Sequence record: OZ346151.1
Strand: one strand, 5' to 3'
DNA from: a phage
DNA length: 64,000 bases
Shown here: one piece after another, positions 1 to 62,897 of the stretch
Layout: each line of letters begins with the position of its first letter
How positions within the stretch are numbered: the stretch's first letter is position 1
Position numbers and translations under genes: made by a program
The notes under the pieces: generated by a model
What the model saw: only the letters and a program-made list of their open reading frames with translations
Told to the model about the DNA's origin: nothing
Databases searched by the model: none

Positions 1-1397
1 TGAGTGCTTTAGAGTTCAAAGCCCCACCTAAGCGAGCATTTACCTCTACAGGAGATGTCAGTAAGATGGGGATAAAATGGTGTGAAGAGATGGGCTGCAA
101 AGACCACGATAAGATGGCTGATTTCTTGAGAGGTTATATTAAGGGCACCTCCACACCACAACCTTTACCTAAAGAGCTGATGGATCAGGCAATAAGCGAT
201 CTGCAACAGAAGCGAATGCCTGACTGCAAGATACCTATGAAAATCAGCAATCAGGACGACATTAAGCGATACCTGATCAGTGCTGGTTGGCTTCCGACAA
301 TGTGGAGAACTAAGGATGTAACTAAGGACAGCAAGAAGAAAGCTCTACCTGATGCAGATGTTGATGCACGAGTATATGCATACATGGACGAGCTTTTAGA
401 GTCAGAGTATTGTGACCTAATTATCAACTTCTGGAACAAAACTGATGCTAAGTTTCAGACAACAGTGCACAAGTTCCGAAGCTTTCCTAACTCCGAAAGG
501 ATTAAAAAGGAAGTGTTCGGGAAAATACGCAGAAAAGCCAGGGCACTTATTACTTCTCCGCAACTGAAAGATACGTTTGGACACCTATGTCCGAATCTTG
601 AAAAATTGAACGGAGAGATGGCTAAAGATATCGTCTTGTGGTTATCATTGCGAAACCGCAGATCGGTCCTTGATCCAATCAAGGAGGATAAGGTTGATAC
701 TGGTCTTCTTAATCACCCACGTTTGAAGATTGACCATAAGCTTCCTGCTAAAAGCTCTGGATTAACAAACACTTCCCGACAGAAACACAGTATTTGTGCA
801 AACATGCCTAAACCATCTCCTAAAGTGGTTATGGGTAAAGAGATGCGTAGCTTGTGGGGTGTTCCTCCTGGATACTTTGAGATCGGTATTGACGGGTCCA
901 ACTTAGAGCAGCTTATCGGGGCTTGGGGTGCCTTTGAGTTCGACAACGGCTTGTACTATGATGTTGTAAGTAACGGGGACGCACACCAAAACAATGCTGA
1001 GGCATATACAAAAGTAGCAGGCAGAGAGGTGTCTCGTAACGACGGTAAACCTATCACGTATGGGGTTATGTACGGGGCACAAAAAGATAAAGTTGCAGAT
1101 ATGCTGGATATCTCCCCAGAGTTGGGGCAAAGGGTGATCGATGCACTTTGGGATGCCAACCCAGGTCTTAAGGGGCGCAAAGAGGATCTGGAGAAATTCT
1201 GGGAAGCAACAGGTAAGAAGTTTATCTACTCTTTTGATGGTCATGCTATCTGGACCCGATCTAAACACTCTTTACTTAATGCATACCAACAAAATGGCGG
1301 CGCATCGTTGTGTGACTTAGTTGGGATACTCATGCACCATCAAATGGTGAAGCGTGGGTGGTACGATGAAGGTGTTCGTCGTATTATCTATTACCAT
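1..1397 (+). CDS. DNA polymerase, family A (Pol I/T7-like), exon 1; 5' end lies outside window
   Basis: Frame 3 is open from window start. Motif A-like GIDGSNLEQL and motif B KPITYGVMYGAQ present. ORF track 66..1403 ends ...IIYYHK-stop exactly where motif C HDE is expected. Confidence 0.85.
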
Positions 1398-2239
1398 AAA
1401 TAACATTGTGGCTTCGTGCAGTGATGCACGTCGAAAACCTCTTTAATTGACGGGAAGGCTAAGTTGACTTTTACACCTAAACATGGTAAAAGCTCAATAT
1501 GCTAATCCGCAGCGAAGACTAAAGGGGTGTAGTTAAAATGGCTAGATCAGTTGAGTATCACGGATATACCGTGTTTGATGATGGAACAATACCTTTATCG
1601 AAACGTGATCATACAACAATGTTTTGTTTTGATAATGGTCGAGGTTACCTTTGCGTAACCATGTTCATCGAGGGGAAGCAGTGCACAAAAGGTGTCCACC
1701 ACTTGGTTGCTGAATGCTTTGTATCAAACCCTGATCCTGAAAGGCTCACATGGGTGAACCATAAGGACGGAAACAAATACAACAATGCATACTGGAACCT
1801 TGAATGGACCACCCCTGGTGGAAATATCAAACACGCTTATGATAATGACCTCAGAGTAAGGCCAGTCGGTGAGTATAATGCCAACGCTGTACTGACCGAG
1901 GATGAGGTAACGGAGATTTGCGAACTGTTACAAAGTGGTTTACGACAATGCGAGATTAGGGATCTTGGGTATCCTTATGAGACGGTCAGAGCCATAAAGC
2001 AAAGAAGACAGTGGAAACATATCTCTAAAAACTACACCTGGTAGTAACGTTCAGAGACTATCGAAAGCATAGCGCCAACATAAATTGGTGCGAAGAAGCG
2101 AGTAGAGTAGACCAGCAAGTGCGGTCGAAATGGGAGGTGCCTTGGTAACAAGGTAGTGAGATAGTCCGATCCATACAGGAAACTGTATGGCTGTGCACGT
2201 AATGGTGCGGGGTAGCTTAACGACCTACCTGAACTATTG
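1398..2239 (+). mobile_element. Group I self-splicing intron inserted in DNA polymerase motif C
   Basis: Conserved core elements in canonical order: P AATTGACGGGAAGG (1445-1458), Q AATCCGCAGC (1504-1513), R GTTCAGAGACTA (2049-2060), S GAGATAGTCC (2158-2167). Exon 1 ends with U (1397), intron ends with G (2239). Joining 1397 to 2240 restores ...YYH-DEYQL... in frame. Confidence 0.8.
1538..2044 (+). CDS. HNH homing endonuclease (intron-encoded, between Q and R elements)
   Basis: 168 aa; HNH motifs VHHLVAECFV ... VNHKDGNKYNN ... NLEW; ATG at 1538 inside intron. Confidence 0.85.
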   Translation: MARSVEYHGYTVFDDGTIPLSKRDHTTMFCFDNGRGYLCVTMFIEGKQCTKGVHHLVAECFVSNPDPERLTWVNHKDGNKYNNAYWNLEWTTPGGNIKHAYDNDLRVRPVGEYNANAVLTEDEVTEICELLQSGLRQCEIRDLGYPYETVRAIKQRRQWKHISKNYTW

Positions 2240-2593
2240 GATGAGTACCAACTTCAAGTCCCTGACACACCGAAGTATAAGACTGTGTACACCTTCGACA
2301 CAATCGAAGAACTGGAAGCATTTAAGGCAGAGCAGGAGGCCAAACTTCATGTGTTCGACGGTCATAAGTACAAAAAGGCACGCAAGGATGAGGACGGAAA
2401 CGAAGTGGTTGACAGAGACGGAAACACGGTGTACGATCCTATCCTGAACGATGACGGAAAGCTTGAACTTATCTGGAGCCCTGTGGGTGAAATGGTGGTG
2501 CATTGCTTCTGGCAAGCTTCTAAAATGATGGGCGTCCCGTTCCAGATCACGGGTGAATACCTGTGTGGTCGTAATTGGGGTGATTGTCACTAA
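2240..2593 (+). CDS. DNA polymerase family A, exon 2 (C-terminal 117 aa)
   Basis: Begins GAT GAG (DE) completing motif C; ends ...GVPFQITGEYLCGRNWGDCH, resembling Pol I (VPLLVEVGSGENWDQAH) and T7 pol (GPNWAICH) C-termini. ORF-track 2237..2593 begins 3 nt upstream at a TTG. Confidence 0.8.
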   Translation, partial: DEYQLQVPDTPKYKTVYTFDTIEELEAFKAEQEAKLHVFDGHKYKKARKDEDGNEVVDRDGNTVYDPILNDDGKLELIWSPVGEMVVHCFWQASKMMGVPFQITGEYLCGRNWGDCH

Positions 2594-2642
2594 TGTAAAC
2601 TATCAACACATGGAAGTGTTGTTGAGCAAAGAGGAGACTTTT

Positions 2643-2927
2643 ATGGTAGTAGAACCAACAAAAACATTTACATCCATGACTATCCCTGTTATTATGCAGG
2701 TGGAGTGTGTTCAGGTATCTCAAGTGTGGCCTGGCACCAAAATCCCGACAGGGCCTGATTTCTTTCAGGTTGGCAAAGTGTACAATGTCTGGAAGGCACC
2801 AGATTGTTACCCTTTCATCAAAGATGACCGTGGGATGCTGTGGTATCTTGGAAATGATTTGACACTGCACCTTGGGAATGCTATTATTGCAGTATTCAGA
2901 CTTAACAAGAAGGAGACTGATCAATGA
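2643..2927 (+). CDS. hypothetical protein
   Basis: ORF track 2553..2927; start refined to ATG 2643 preceded by GAGGAG. Confidence 0.45.
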   Translation: MVVEPTKTFTSMTIPVIMQVECVQVSQVWPGTKIPTGPDFFQVGKVYNVWKAPDCYPFIKDDRGMLWYLGNDLTLHLGNAIIAVFRLNKKETDQ

Positions 2928-3151
2928 CGACTTTGGTTAAAGCTACCTTTGTAGAAGAAAAGATGACAGACCTGTCATTCTTTAAAGAAGGAAAGACCTA
3001 CGAGGTTTATTACGATAAAGCTCGTGCAAATAAAATGATTAAAGACGAGGAAGGGGTTGCCTGGTTTATCTCCCATCTGGCAAACGGTGAGTATCATATC
3101 TACGGAACCACCCTGCTTGCCAAGTTTGTAGCTGTTGAAGAGGACCTATGA
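2924..3151 (+). CDS. hypothetical protein
   Basis: 75 aa ORF, start overlaps upstream stop (ATGA). Confidence 0.45.
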   Translation: MTTLVKATFVEEKMTDLSFFKEGKTYEVYYDKARANKMIKDEEGVAWFISHLANGEYHIYGTTLLAKFVAVEEDL

Positions 3152-3342
3152 AAGTAAAGTATCTGGCTGAGGGTATGAGTAGGTATTTCACCCTTGGTGA
3201 AGAATATTGGCCATTTACAAGCAACGGCGATGTCTACGTGAAAGATAATTTCGGCACGCCATGGTTTTTGCACCCTAACGGGTTAGGGTATTCTATTTAT
3301 CGCAGTGCAATGAGCGACACAACCCTTGCAGAGTTTGTATAG
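3148..3342 (+). CDS. hypothetical protein
   Basis: 64 aa ORF, translationally coupled. Confidence 0.4.
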   Translation: MKVKYLAEGMSRYFTLGEEYWPFTSNGDVYVKDNFGTPWFLHPNGLGYSIYRSAMSDTTLAEFV

Positions 3343-36263: not shown

Positions 36264-37472
36264 TCAGCAACCACAACTTCCGTAGTGCTTAACTCGCTCG
36301 ATAACTTCCGCTTGCTTACCTTTATTGTAAGGACGGGAGTTAGGACTGGAAAGGTATCCAGACACACGTCGAATTACACTGATCGTTCCCTCTTCATGGT
36401 TTCCACACTCTGGGCATACAAAGCCTTTAGCTGTTGCACTGAACTCACCAGAGAAACCACACTTGAGACATTTATCCACAGGTTGGTTAATACCAAAATA
36501 CATAATGTGTTTATACCCGAAGTCAACAAGAGCCTCTAAAGCATCCAGGTTGTTTTTCAGGTTAGGTGTTTCTACGTATCCGATGTTGCCACCAGAGGAT
36601 ATCATAGCAAAACCTTCTTCATACTCCCACTTATCAAAAGGAGAGCTATTGATCCATACTGGCTGATGGAAACTGTTGGTGAGATATTCATGCTCGTGCT
36701 TCAACACTTCAGGATATTCACGATCCAGACAGGTTGCAGCTTTATAGCATAGACTCTCAGAAGGGGTGCCGTACAAACTAAACGCTAGTCTACTTTTCTT
36801 CTTGTATCGCTCACAAGCATCTCTCATGTGCTGAAGTATTCCAAGAGCTAAAGCCTTGTCACCCTCTCTGCCCAAAATCTGACAGGTTTCATACACACCA
36901 ATATACCCAATACTGATGGAAGCGTACCCGTCATAGAAGAGTTTATCAATACTCTCTTCAGGATCCAGGCGAGCAAGAGCGCCTTCACACCACATGATAG
37001 GGTTCTGCCCTGCCTTAGTGCCTTTCAGACGGTTAACCCTTACAAGGTGAGCTTCATATGCCAAATCCAGATACTCGTCAAGAACGGAAAAGAAATCAAC
37101 ACCTTCCGTCTTAGCTTTTGCCGCAATCATTGGCAGGTTAAGACTAACAACACCCAAGTTGAATCTGCCGAGGTATTTCTCCTCACCTGTTTCCAAGTCA
37201 TTGTATTTGCTAAGAAAACTCCGGCAACCCATGCTCGTTACTTTACCATCTGTCGAGCCTGTCACTTTACGATTTAGTGGAACAGAAACAAAGTCAGGAT
37301 AAATCCGCTCTGCAGAGCATTCCAGAGCTAATCGTTTCAAATCATAGTTAGGATCTCCAGGGTTCATGTTGACACCCTCTTCTAGGAAGAACAACACTTT
37401 AGGGAACACAGGTGTGATACGTTCTTCACCAAGACCCATTTTGTGGACTTTCAAGTAGTTTTTGGTAATCAT
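36264..37472 (-). CDS. nrdD: Anaerobic (class III) ribonucleotide reductase, C-terminal portion
   Basis: Glycyl-radical motif RVSGYL near C-terminus; zinc-ribbon Cys pairs CLKCGFSGE ... CPECGN. Confidence 0.85.
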   Translation of the reverse strand: MITKNYLKVHKMGLGEERITPVFPKVLFFLEEGVNMNPGDPNYDLKRLALECSAERIYPDFVSVPLNRKVTGSTDGKVTSMGCRSFLSKYNDLETGEEKYLGRFNLGVVSLNLPMIAAKAKTEGVDFFSVLDEYLDLAYEAHLVRVNRLKGTKAGQNPIMWCEGALARLDPEESIDKLFYDGYASISIGYIGVYETCQILGREGDKALALGILQHMRDACERYKKKSRLAFSLYGTPSESLCYKAATCLDREYPEVLKHEHEYLTNSFHQPVWINSSPFDKWEYEEGFAMISSGGNIGYVETPNLKNNLDALEALVDFGYKHIMYFGINQPVDKCLKCGFSGEFSATAKGFVCPECGNHEEGTISVIRRVSGYLSSPNSRPYNKGKQAEVIERVKHYGSCGC

Positions 37473-38320
37473 TCTACCAAAGACTGAGGTGTCCAGACCT
37501 AAACTTAATGTGATGAATGGAGTCTGCTGTCTCCTCCCTGTGTTTCCACAGGGCCAGACTATCTCTTACTCTACTTCAATAAGATAATAACCCTTTATTG
37601 TGAGATGCTTACCTTCGGCATTTCCTTCGATAGCCCTATGAACGTTACCTACGTTCAAATTTAAGGCTTTTGCACAGGCATAGAGTGAAGGATATTCACC
37701 CACCAAGGTTTTACCTTTGTATGCCTGCACTTTCCTATAGCACTTACCTGGACAAAGTCCTGTTCGGAAAGCATGTCTCTTATTATCTTCCGGCAAAACC
37801 CACTCTAGGTTAGACGGATGATCATTCAATGTATTGCCATCTTTATGATTCACTTCCCAGTTTTCAGGGTCTTCTGGGACATCCGGCAAACAATACAAGG
37901 CAACAATCCTTGAGGTTTGGATTCGAATCTTTTTACCTTTGTGGTTGAAAGAGTACATATAACGGCGTTTAACATGCTTGTTACCTTTTCCATAACCTCC
38001 CCACAATATTGGGTGTAGCATTCCACGTTTTCCGTATACGTTTCCAACCTCATCAATCACATAGTTTGATTCTTCACCATTAAGAATGATCTTTTTCATA
38101 GAGCCTCTCCATTTCGAAGTTAGTATTTCAACTAACCCCTACACTACTTGGTTCAGAAATGTTTGTCAAGCATTTCTGCCTTTCGTTAGTCGTTACAACC
38201 GTTCCAACTCCTGTAAGAACTAGTCACGGGATTGGCATAGCTTTCGCCTTAGCGTTCCCCGTTAGCCGGATTTACCGACCCCTCTTATGAGGTTAGGAGA
38301 GTTTTACAACGGCCAGTTTG
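37473..38320 (-). mobile_element. Putative group I intron (with HNH ORF) splitting nrdD; exact splice sites undetermined
   Basis: On the minus strand: P-like AACGGGGAACGC, Q-like AATCCCGTGA, R-like GTAACGACTAA (about 38184-38196), S-like AAGAGATAGTCTGG (37553-37566) just after the HNH stop. About 220 nt GC-rich non-coding before the HNH ORF. Confidence 0.55.
37566..38099 (-). CDS. HNH homing endonuclease (within nrdD insertion)
   Basis: 177 aa; VNHKDGNTLNDHPSNLEW motif. Confidence 0.85.
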   Translation of the reverse strand: MKKIILNGEESNYVIDEVGNVYGKRGMLHPILWGGYGKGNKHVKRRYMYSFNHKGKKIRIQTSRIVALYCLPDVPEDPENWEVNHKDGNTLNDHPSNLEWVLPEDNKRHAFRTGLCPGKCYRKVQAYKGKTLVGEYPSLYACAKALNLNVGNVHRAIEGNAEGKHLTIKGYYLIEVE

Positions 38321-39184
38321 TTAACCGTTGACAGAAGTTAACGTGTTGATTTGATAGAGCAAAGTCTGCATGCTGTCAAATACGTCTTTATCTGTCATTT
38401 GCATTGCAACAGTTTCAGCATCCGGCAACCAATGTTCCTGGCAAAATTTAAGGTTCTTCTCATAGGTTGCTTCAGCATACTGTGCCAGATAATGATCAAT
38501 ATGGCTCATAGTCTGACCACCATATTGAGCACTAGCTACCGCACTAGAGATTTGGCTAAGGATTGTTGTTGCAACCCCTATTGACTTCGGCTTACTGACA
38601 TGGGCGTTACCAATGTTGAATCCGTTTTCCAACATATCTGGATAATTTACCAAACAACAGTTTGTTAACGGACTGATCAAGTAGTCAAGATCATGCACAT
38701 GGATGAATCCTTTATTGTGCTCTTCGGAGACACGGTCTGGCAGGATCTGTGTTGATGCAAGGTGTTTGCTAAGAATACCTGCAAGCAGGTCGCGATGAGT
38801 GTGTACATGATTAGTAGGCTTATTTGCGTTTTCTTTTGTAAATTCATCACAAGTTCGATCCAAGAAGCCACTAATATCTGCAAGCAGTTTTCCACCTGCC
38901 TCTCTGTTATTATCTCTTGTCTGTCTATACTGGATGTATTCTCTGGCTGCACATTTTAAACCCATATCCATAAGAGCATCTTCAACAAGGATATGGATAT
39001 TTTTTACAGAGATCGTGCACTGGTCGGTTGGTAGATTGTTAGCAACAACTTCATTAACCGCGCAGGCGATCCGGTAAGCTTCTTCTTCAGTATGTCCAGA
39101 CTCAAGTAAGGCGGACTCTGCCGCCTTGATCACCTTAATTCCGTTATAGAACTCTTCTCTACCGTCCCGTTTTACAACTTTCAC
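38321..39184 (-). CDS. nrdD: Anaerobic (class III) ribonucleotide reductase, N-terminal portion
   Basis: ATP-cone-like start MKVVKRDGREEFYNGIKV; GFIHVHDLDY motif. Confidence 0.85.
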   Translation of the reverse strand: MKVVKRDGREEFYNGIKVIKAAESALLESGHTEEEAYRIACAVNEVVANNLPTDQCTISVKNIHILVEDALMDMGLKCAAREYIQYRQTRDNNREAGGKLLADISGFLDRTCDEFTKENANKPTNHVHTHRDLLAGILSKHLASTQILPDRVSEEHNKGFIHVHDLDYLISPLTNCCLVNYPDMLENGFNIGNAHVSKPKSIGVATTILSQISSAVASAQYGGQTMSHIDHYLAQYAEATYEKNLKFCQEHWLPDAETVAMQMTDKDVFDSMQTLLYQINTLTSVNG

Positions 39185-62809: not shown

Positions 62810-62820
62810 AATAGTAAATA

Positions 62821-62897
62821 CTCCGCGTAGCTCAGCTTGGTAGAGCGCCTGATTTGGGATCAGGAGGTCGAGTGTTCGAATCACTCCGTGGAGACCA
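62821..62897 (+). tRNA. tRNA-Pro (anticodon TGG), CCA encoded
   Basis: Acceptor CTCCGCG/CGTGGAG (C1:G72 as in Pro tRNAs), anticodon loop TTTGGGA, T-loop TTCGAAT. Confidence 0.85.

Follow-up and report, generated by a model that had tools for sequence, protein, structure and literature searches.

The nrdD gene of the phage whose DNA was analyzed here (a stretch of 64,000 nucleotides, referred to below as the window) is very probably a single gene into which a mobile group I intron has inserted, with the full-length NrdD protein most likely produced by RNA splicing. The intron occupies positions 38323-37527 on the minus strand (797 nt, starting with UAACAAACUGG and ending with GGAGACAG, with the terminal G at position 37527) and contains a gene encoding a putative HNH endonuclease. 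The first-pass annotation had described a group I-like insertion carrying an HNH gene and splitting nrdD, and this is borne out by the splice junction, by the core helices of the RNA and by the existence of uninterrupted alleles. The insertion is therefore real, but the range originally assigned to it (37473-38320) corresponds to the gap between the two flanking ORFs and not to the intron itself.

A 3.1-kb region of the window containing nrdD is 99.7% identical to the corresponding DNA of Escherichia phage magaca, and shows 94-98% identity to many other Vequintavirus (rV5-like) phages; on this sequence similarity, the window phage is assigned to the rV5-like coliphages of the genus Vequintavirus. 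The nrdD gene is surrounded by a minus-strand block of nucleotide metabolism genes. It is adjoined by intact nrdA (42905-40590, minus strand) and nrdB, which follows nrdA, and a glutaredoxin gene (39459-39181, minus strand) is located directly upstream of the two nrdD pieces. The ORF past these pieces (36087-35614, minus strand) occupies the position of the class III reductase activator in the records of the sister phages.

Two adjacent minus-strand ORFs had been recognized as the N-terminal (ATP-cone, IHVHDLD) and C-terminal (RVSGY, zinc ribbon) parts of one NrdD, an assignment upheld by Pfam and by the motifs FIHVHDLDY, RRVSGY and CLKCG..CPECG found in these ORFs. The 5' ORF (39184-38321, 287 aa) matches the ATP-cone domain and positions 1-154 of the NRDD domain, while the 3' ORF (37472-36264, 402 aa) matches NRDD positions 180-562 and the Gly_radical domain. 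Exon 1 (39184-38324, minus strand) starts with a GTG codon, which overlaps the glutaredoxin stop codon, encodes the ATP-cone and the N-terminal part of the NrdD barrel, and ends with ..GUC AAC GGU; the first three bases of the intron constitute the TAA stop codon of the exon-1 ORF. Exon 2 (37526-36264, minus strand) starts with CAG ACU CCA UUC (QTPF), 18 codons (54 nt) 5' of its first ATG (37472), and encodes the C-terminus with the glycyl-radical and zinc-ribbon regions. Exon 1 is colinear from residue 1 with the NrdD structures 1h78 (phage T4) and 9d3x, and the predicted spliced protein of 707 aa matches both of them end to end across the junction (E = 1.4e-167 and 7.8e-164, respectively). 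This predicted product has the full composition of a class III ribonucleotide reductase NrdD, i.e. an ATP-cone, the NRDD barrel, a zinc ribbon and a glycyl-radical C-terminus.

The predicted splice junction, ..AAC GGU^CAG ACU.. (NG^QTPF in the protein; the caret marks the splice site), can be fixed to the nucleotide, because four independent lines of evidence agree. Alignment of the two halves with intact NrdD, proposed in the first-pass annotation as a means of locating the junction residue, placed it at NG^QTPF. The alignment with T4 NrdD is gapless at this point, both for NTLTSVNG^QTPFITL (against NTLFSSNGQTPFVTI) and for the longer segment NTLTSVNG^QTPFITLSLG (against NTLFSSNGQTPFVTITFG); the peptide spanning the junction reads ..TSVNGQTPFITL.. 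A 400-nt query comprising both exon ends in spliced form was found as a contiguous sequence (93-98% identity) in many Vequintavirus genomes, and the uninterrupted sister alleles matching it, which include those of nimi, JeffSchatz, S127 and O157 typing phage 14, could be aligned base by base without gaps. When the same splice sites were applied to the DNA of phages MaxBurger and HeinrichReichert, the resulting proteins were letter-for-letter identical to QXV82698.1 and QXV79969.1, the GenBank products of the joined CDSs in the BASEL collection.

The 93 nt between the HNH stop codon and the exon-2 ATG, within which the 3' splice site had been expected to lie, are indeed open in the exon-2 frame, and the alignments and uninterrupted alleles now fix the site at 37527/37526. 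In this frame, the stretch separating the HNH stop from the ATG at 37472 contains no ATG, GTG or TTG codon. Because of this lack of an upstream start codon, the first 18 codons of exon 2, which are conserved (they encode QTPFITLSLGLDTSVFGR, which aligns with QTPFVTITFGTGTDWTER of T4 NrdD), would be translatable only after splicing.

The intron sequence can be folded into a predicted td-like (IA-type) group I core. Numbering the first intron base as position 1, the core is composed of a 5' ribozyme segment (38323-38100, minus strand; intron 1-224), which extends from the P10/P1 guide (8-17) through the start of P8, and a 3' ribozyme segment (37574-37527, minus strand; intron 750-797), which contains the 3' strand of P8, J8/7, P7', P9 and the terminal G. 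The P-, Q-, R- and S-like elements quoted in the first-pass annotation are all present, and they pair with one another: AACGGGGAACGC (intron 61-72) with AATCCCGTGA (91-100) as P4, and GTAACGACTAA (128-138) with AGATAGTCTGG (760-770) as P7. The core helices are complementary throughout (the P3/P7 pseudoknot, P4-P6, P8 and P9). P1 would be formed by exon positions -7 to -1 and intron 11-17 (CAACGGU/GCCGUUG, 7 bp, with U.G at the 5' splice site), and P10, of only 3 bp (CUG/CAG), by intron 8-10 and exon-2 positions +1 to +3. The remaining pairings are P3 (23-28 with 214-219; CUCUCC/GGAGAG), P4 (62-67 with 93-98; ACGGGG/UCCCGU), P5 (within 70-90, closed by a GAAA loop), P6 (104-123; 7/8 bp), P7 (133-137 with 763-767; GACUA/UAGUC), P8 (220-226 with 750-756; GCUCUAU/GUAGAGU), which encloses the HNH ORF, and P9 (771-788, also with a GAAA loop).

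A shorter version of the intron (257 nt), lacking the ORF and inserted at the same site, occurs in phage HeinrichReichert (locus L001) and in the IMG/VR locus L014. It is 86% identical to the window intron over the first 139 nt and differs from it between P7.1 and P8. In both versions the last nucleotide is a G (..GACAG^ in the window, where it is intron position 797, i.e. 37527, and ..GACCG^ in the ORF-less variant). P7.1 is degenerate in the window intron (CGAAAG) and an additional 8-bp hairpin (146-170) is inserted, while P7.2 (185-208) is clear, at 9 bp; the ORF-less variant has CCUUUUGG and a P7.2 of 5 bp in this region. The layout of the 5' part is non-canonical: there is no P2 before P3, 5 nt separate P1 from the 5' strand of P3, and two hairpins (32-43 and 44-60) are located between P3 and the UAA-P4 segment. 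In the td structure, taken here as the model of subgroup IA2, P2 is placed between P1 and P3, with P3 abutting J3/4-P4, and the window intron departs from this arrangement. A 7-nt candidate for the 3' strand of P3 within the HNH ORF (GCCGGAU, against AUCCGGC) was rejected; the sister phages have GCCAGAU in this place.

Comparison of the window intron with its relatives supports the fold, though not conclusively. Within the alignable parts, 96% of the cells pair, as opposed to 30-52% when the 3' partners are slid, a test based on only three distinct sequences, in which 8 of 500 shuffles reach the observed values. Changes on both sides were found in five pairs, one each in P1 (C-G/A-U), P3 (C-G/G-C), hairpin 2 (G-C/A-U), P6 (U-A/C-G) and P9 (C-G/U-A). 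P5 was mis-indexed in the structure string used for this test (helix 6, 0% paired); it is invariant in all three sequences and carries no information. P3 is complementary in seven family members with six different sequences. The ORF-less variant has CUCUGC with GCAGGG or GCAGAG, and four more distant IMG/VR members (L010, L012, L015 and L021) have CACGGUG/CGCCGUG, AUACCU/GGGUAU, AUAUCU/GGAUAU and CACACCC/GGGUGUG, respectively, all complementary and placed alike. The low scores of P6, P8 and P9 of some distant relatives in a simple pairing check are due solely to the bulged form of these helices. Among five phages carrying the version present in the window, the 263 bases outside the ORF contain two differences, both of which convert an A-U pair within a helix into G.U.

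The Rfam search suggested in the first-pass annotation gave a divided result. At gathering thresholds only tRNAs were found, and RF00028 matched the window intron with 27.8 bits (gathering score 50), i.e. below the threshold that had been taken as decisive against an intron; nevertheless, the match had an E value of 8.7e-5 in a search of 1.2 kb (0.0046 in 64 kb). In the same kind of search the T4 nrdD intron, used as a control, obtained 105 bits, and a second, different intron located further down nrdD in L014 obtained 70.5 bits. The ORF cannot be the sole reason for the low score, since the ORF-less variant also reaches only 27.4-29.8 bits. The score probably reflects a poor fit of the model to an intron with two hairpins between P3 and P4. 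RF00028 expects P2 before P3, and in the ORF-less variant it aligns a different, weaker pairing as P3, treating the covarying 5' strand of P3 and the first hairpin as an insertion. This alternative P3 (CGCUG../..CAGGG) was rejected, as it is weak in the window version, while pairing of the CUCUCC/GGAGAG type is found in 7 of 7 members. The fit is best in the 3' ribozyme segment, where J8/7-P7' (AAGAGAUAGUCUGG) aligns to the consensus; the helices that the model assigns upstream of J8/7 are unusable, because the whole model is forced into the 3' end of the ORF and the tail.

Three states of the nrdD allele coexist in Vequintavirus: an intron with the HNH gene, an ORF-less intron, and no intron. 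Among 121 phage records with nrdD, 28 contain the first and 14 the second form, and the sampled remainder are uninterrupted. The sequence at the junction is GGT^CAG ACT in the alleles with intron and HNH gene (four sampled), GGT^CAA ACC in those with the ORF-less intron (two sampled) and GGG CAA in the intron-free alleles (four sampled), whose nimi-type target reads ..AACGGGCAAACUCC.. Thus, the base at position -1 is T(U) in 6 of 6 intron alleles and in 0 of 4 intron-free alleles, and this is the base required for the U.G pair at the 5' splice site. Over 30 flanking codons the protein is identical in all sampled alleles, except that one intron-free allele has a V-to-I substitution 15 codons downstream. 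The other synonymous differences fit co-conversion during homing; they could also affect recognition by the endonuclease.

These data can be accommodated in a model of splicing and mobility. The pre-mRNA would fold into a td-like (IA-type) ribozyme, in which the guide GCCGUUG binds the final seven nucleotides of exon 1 (CAACGGU), with a wobble pair (U.G) at the 5' splice site. An external guanosine would then attack after that U, and the 3'-OH of exon 1 would attack after the terminal G (37527), joining ..AAC GGU to CAG ACU.. and yielding a 707-aa NrdD identical around the site to the uninterrupted NrdD of sister phages. In mixed infections, the HNH enzyme may nick or cut intron-free nrdD near the insertion site, and repair from the intron-bearing genome would copy the intron together with the flanking synonymous markers.

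It is conceivable that the insertion is not spliced and that NrdD is made as two polypeptides assembling after translation, in the manner reported for NrdA of Aeromonas phage Aeh1, split by the endonuclease gene mobE (cited in PMC7344957). The annotation of two separate nrdD CDSs in most GenBank records and the sub-threshold RF00028 score would be in line with such a reading, and there is a precedent in the HNH-containing insertion of the related Certrevirus CB7, which was not removed at the mRNA level (PMC7344957). We nevertheless regard it as very improbable. Translation of ORF 2 could start only at the ATG at 37472, with the loss of 18 residues that are conserved with T4 NrdD and have been kept in frame; the intervening RNA contains a full set of group I core elements with compensatory changes, for which a free-standing endonuclease insertion would have no need; and the splice-site U is fixed only in the intron-bearing alleles. 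It is similarly hard to believe that the intron is a relic, decaying or impaired in splicing, and nrdD effectively a pseudogene, with the phage relying on NrdAB (class I) or on the host: intact nrdA and nrdB are indeed present next door, P7.1 is degenerate, an extra hairpin has been inserted and the Rfam score is low, but the exons are intact and constrained (near the site, the protein matches that encoded by intron-free alleles), the ribozyme cores of five phages differ by only 0-2 bases, with pairing preserved, the endonuclease gene is undamaged, and the intron is retained in 28 independently isolated phages.

Interruption of nrdD by a spliced group I intron is thus the reading we retain, and the first-pass annotation cited the intron in T4 nrdD (sunY) as a precedent. 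The analogy is valid, as the T4 element is likewise a group I intron, contains a gene for a homing endonuclease, is inserted in the same conserved nrdD stretch and has related core sequences in P4 and P7; however, the two elements are not the same. The T4 intron is inserted 32 nt upstream of the Vequintavirus one, within the Tyr codon of AYE-Y-EVN (GAGU^AU); its endonuclease, I-TevII, belongs to the GIY-YIG and not to the HNH family, and its ORF is located near the intron 3' end, 3' of the core, whereas the Vequintavirus ORF is placed in P8. The T4 and Vequintavirus introns entered this conserved part of nrdD independently of each other.

The T4 td intron (IA2) shares with the window intron the form of P1 (..GGU^UAA..GGCC..), identical 10-mers in P4/P4' (AACGGGGAAC...CAAUCCCGUG), the same P7 strands (AACGACUA / AUAGUCUG), the sequence GUAGGG..GAAAC/U followed by the 3' strand of P3 (GAAAU in the window), and the P9 hairpin. 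The differences concern the 5' half and the position of the ORF. In td a P2 hairpin precedes P3, which abuts J3/4, whereas in the window P3 comes directly after P1 and two hairpins precede P4; the ORF of td, for the GIY-YIG enzyme I-TevI, starts a short distance past P4', in the region of P6, and that of the window lies in P8. About 20 of 47 IMG/VR loci sharing the td-type P4 motif show the signature GCU-AACGGGG, and a literature search found no relevant account of hairpins placed between P3 and P4 ("P3.1", "P3.2"). We consider it possible, though on balance doubtful, that these introns form a widespread phage class with a td-like core and a perhaps undescribed 5' half (P3 directly after P1 and two covarying hairpins before J3/4-P4), a layout which RF00028 misses, and that in the present case the location of the endonuclease Shine-Dalgarno sequence in the 3' strand of P3 and of its AUG in P8 makes splicing and translation mutually exclusive.

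The HNH homing endonuclease gene (38099-37566, minus strand; 177 aa), looped out of P8, had also been noted between the NrdD halves, and its presence is confirmed by a match to Pfam HNH_3 (29.3 bits, cut-off 24.8; residues 78-107, VNHKDGN..N..NLEW..N..H). The ORF further matches phrog_59 (1.5e-26) and an HNH homing endonuclease structure, PDB 1u3e (E = 2.7e-4; residues 8-160 against 8-159), which is I-HmuI of phage SPO1. Its score for the Pfam model I-HmuI_NUMOD-like is 18.4 bits, below the cut-off of 27. The nicking enzyme I-HmuI, encoded in the DNA polymerase intron of this Bacillus phage, is of nearly the same length (174 aa as against 177), and the likeness extends almost from end to end, including the HNH motif and the C-terminal NUMOD-like region; the match is nevertheless weak, and the host gene and target site differ. 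The 177-aa protein is classified as a putative I-HmuI-like HNH endonuclease. All five phages compared have an uninterrupted ORF, and their proteins differ at 0-2 residues.

The HNH gene and the ribozyme share sequence at both ends of the ORF. The GGAGAG at 38110-38105 (minus strand), which pairs with CUCUCC as the 3' strand of P3, is also the Shine-Dalgarno sequence of the HNH ORF, 5 nt from the AUG at 38099. The A and U of this start codon lie within the 5' strand of P8, and the 3' strand of P8 consists of the last two codons of the ORF and the U of the stop codon. The folded ribozyme would hide the ribosome-binding site, and a translating ribosome would be expected to unfold P3 and P8. Given this placement of the ribosome-binding site in P3 and of the AUG in P8, we infer that folding of the ribozyme and translation of the endonuclease should exclude each other. 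In the T4 td intron, too, translation of I-TevI is regulated by RNA structure. A scan for sigma-70-like promoters inside the intron revealed none. A TTGACA hexamer is present in the loop of the extra hairpin, and the only terminator-like match at this hairpin is on the opposite strand.

GenBank already contains this intron with its exact junction, and the element is of a textbook kind; what is generally known of group I introns is unchanged by it. The records of the BASEL collection annotate the intron with the same junction: in MaxBurger (MZ501093) bas54_0178 is joined from two pieces, bas54_0179 is named "putative homing endonuclease", and the 797-nt intron, at the same site of the same gene, differs from that of the window at 7 positions. 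The BASEL paper mentions in general terms that intron boundaries were established by comparative genomics (PMC8594841, 2021), and the rV5 genome paper describes introns in the terminase gene only. Our literature search revealed no paper on the RNA structure or splicing of the Vequintavirus nrdD intron. These phages offer a clean natural example of the homing cycle, with three allele states in one genus and synonymous exon markers that track the intron. Most public records split nrdD into two "genes" and list a hypothetical protein or an HNH gene beside them; that of magaca, the closest one, has two nrdD CDSs and no intron. The appropriate annotation is a single joined CDS (707 aa, GTG start). 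In the BASEL records, the nrdD CDS starts at Met72, and the ATP-cone is consequently left out.

The members of the nrdD intron family (the window intron, those of the IMG/VR contigs L010, L012, L015 and L021, and that of the IMG/VR contig L014) have a common organization of their 5′ part, in which the 5′ strand of P3 directly follows P1, and two covarying hairpins lie between this strand and J3/4-P4. The P3 strand and the two hairpins occupy positions 38264-38301 of the window (intron positions 23-60). This order of elements (P1, P3, two hairpins, P4) differs from that of the T4 td intron, in which P3 is preceded by P2, and the same signature is common to approximately 20 of the 47 IMG/VR loci carrying a td-type P4 motif. 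The unusual layout is probably the reason why members of the family obtain low scores with RF00028, the Rfam group I intron model.

In some sister phages, nrdD contains an additional insertion, located approx. 250-310 nt downstream of the nrdD intron site; at this position the gene of the window is uninterrupted. The insertion of phage phita32 (positions 2584-3333 of locus L002) holds an ORF of 170 aa and is matched by RF00028 at 3181-3286 (35 bits), and phages C2 and JEP1 likewise carry a further insertion within nrdD. In L014, a second nrdD intron, distinct from the family member mentioned above and situated further downstream in the gene (2246-2485; RF00028, 70.5 bits), is devoid of an ORF.

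The most likely start codon of nrdD in the window is the GTG at 39184, which overlaps the stop codon of the glutaredoxin gene by 4 nt (39181-39184). This assignment is backed by the predicted product, in which the ATP-cone spans residues 1-91 (Pfam) and the alignment to PDB 9d3x begins at residue 1. The nrdD CDS annotated in the BASEL records (GenBank Vequintavirus genomes) begins at Met72, and most of the ATP-cone is thereby lost.

Approximately 19-23 public records, most of them without annotation, are titled "Campylobacter phage", with C. jejuni given as the host. Their nrdD genes are 95-98% identical to those of E. coli Vequintavirus genomes, which suggests that the hosts were mislabelled or that this data set contains contaminating coliphages.

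Besides the nrdD intron, the window contains a second predicted group I intron (1388-2240, plus strand), which harbours a separate HNH gene and is matched by RF00028 at 1388-2189 (39.1 bits, E = 1.8e-6). The HNH ORF (1538-2044, plus strand; 168 aa) shows 42% identity to its counterpart in the nrdD intron around the HNH motif. The plus-strand ORFs on either side, one ending at approx. 1397 with ..RIIYYH and the other continuing in frame from approx. 2240 with DEYQLQV.., look like pieces of a single gene. Judged by its motifs alone, the interrupted gene would encode a family A DNA polymerase, with the break falling within the YHDE motif.

At the far end of the window, at least six tRNA genes are clustered on the plus strand at 62085-62894 (Rfam tRNA model, 30-77 bits), and two weaker tRNA-like matches were found at 62164-62246 and 62365-62451.
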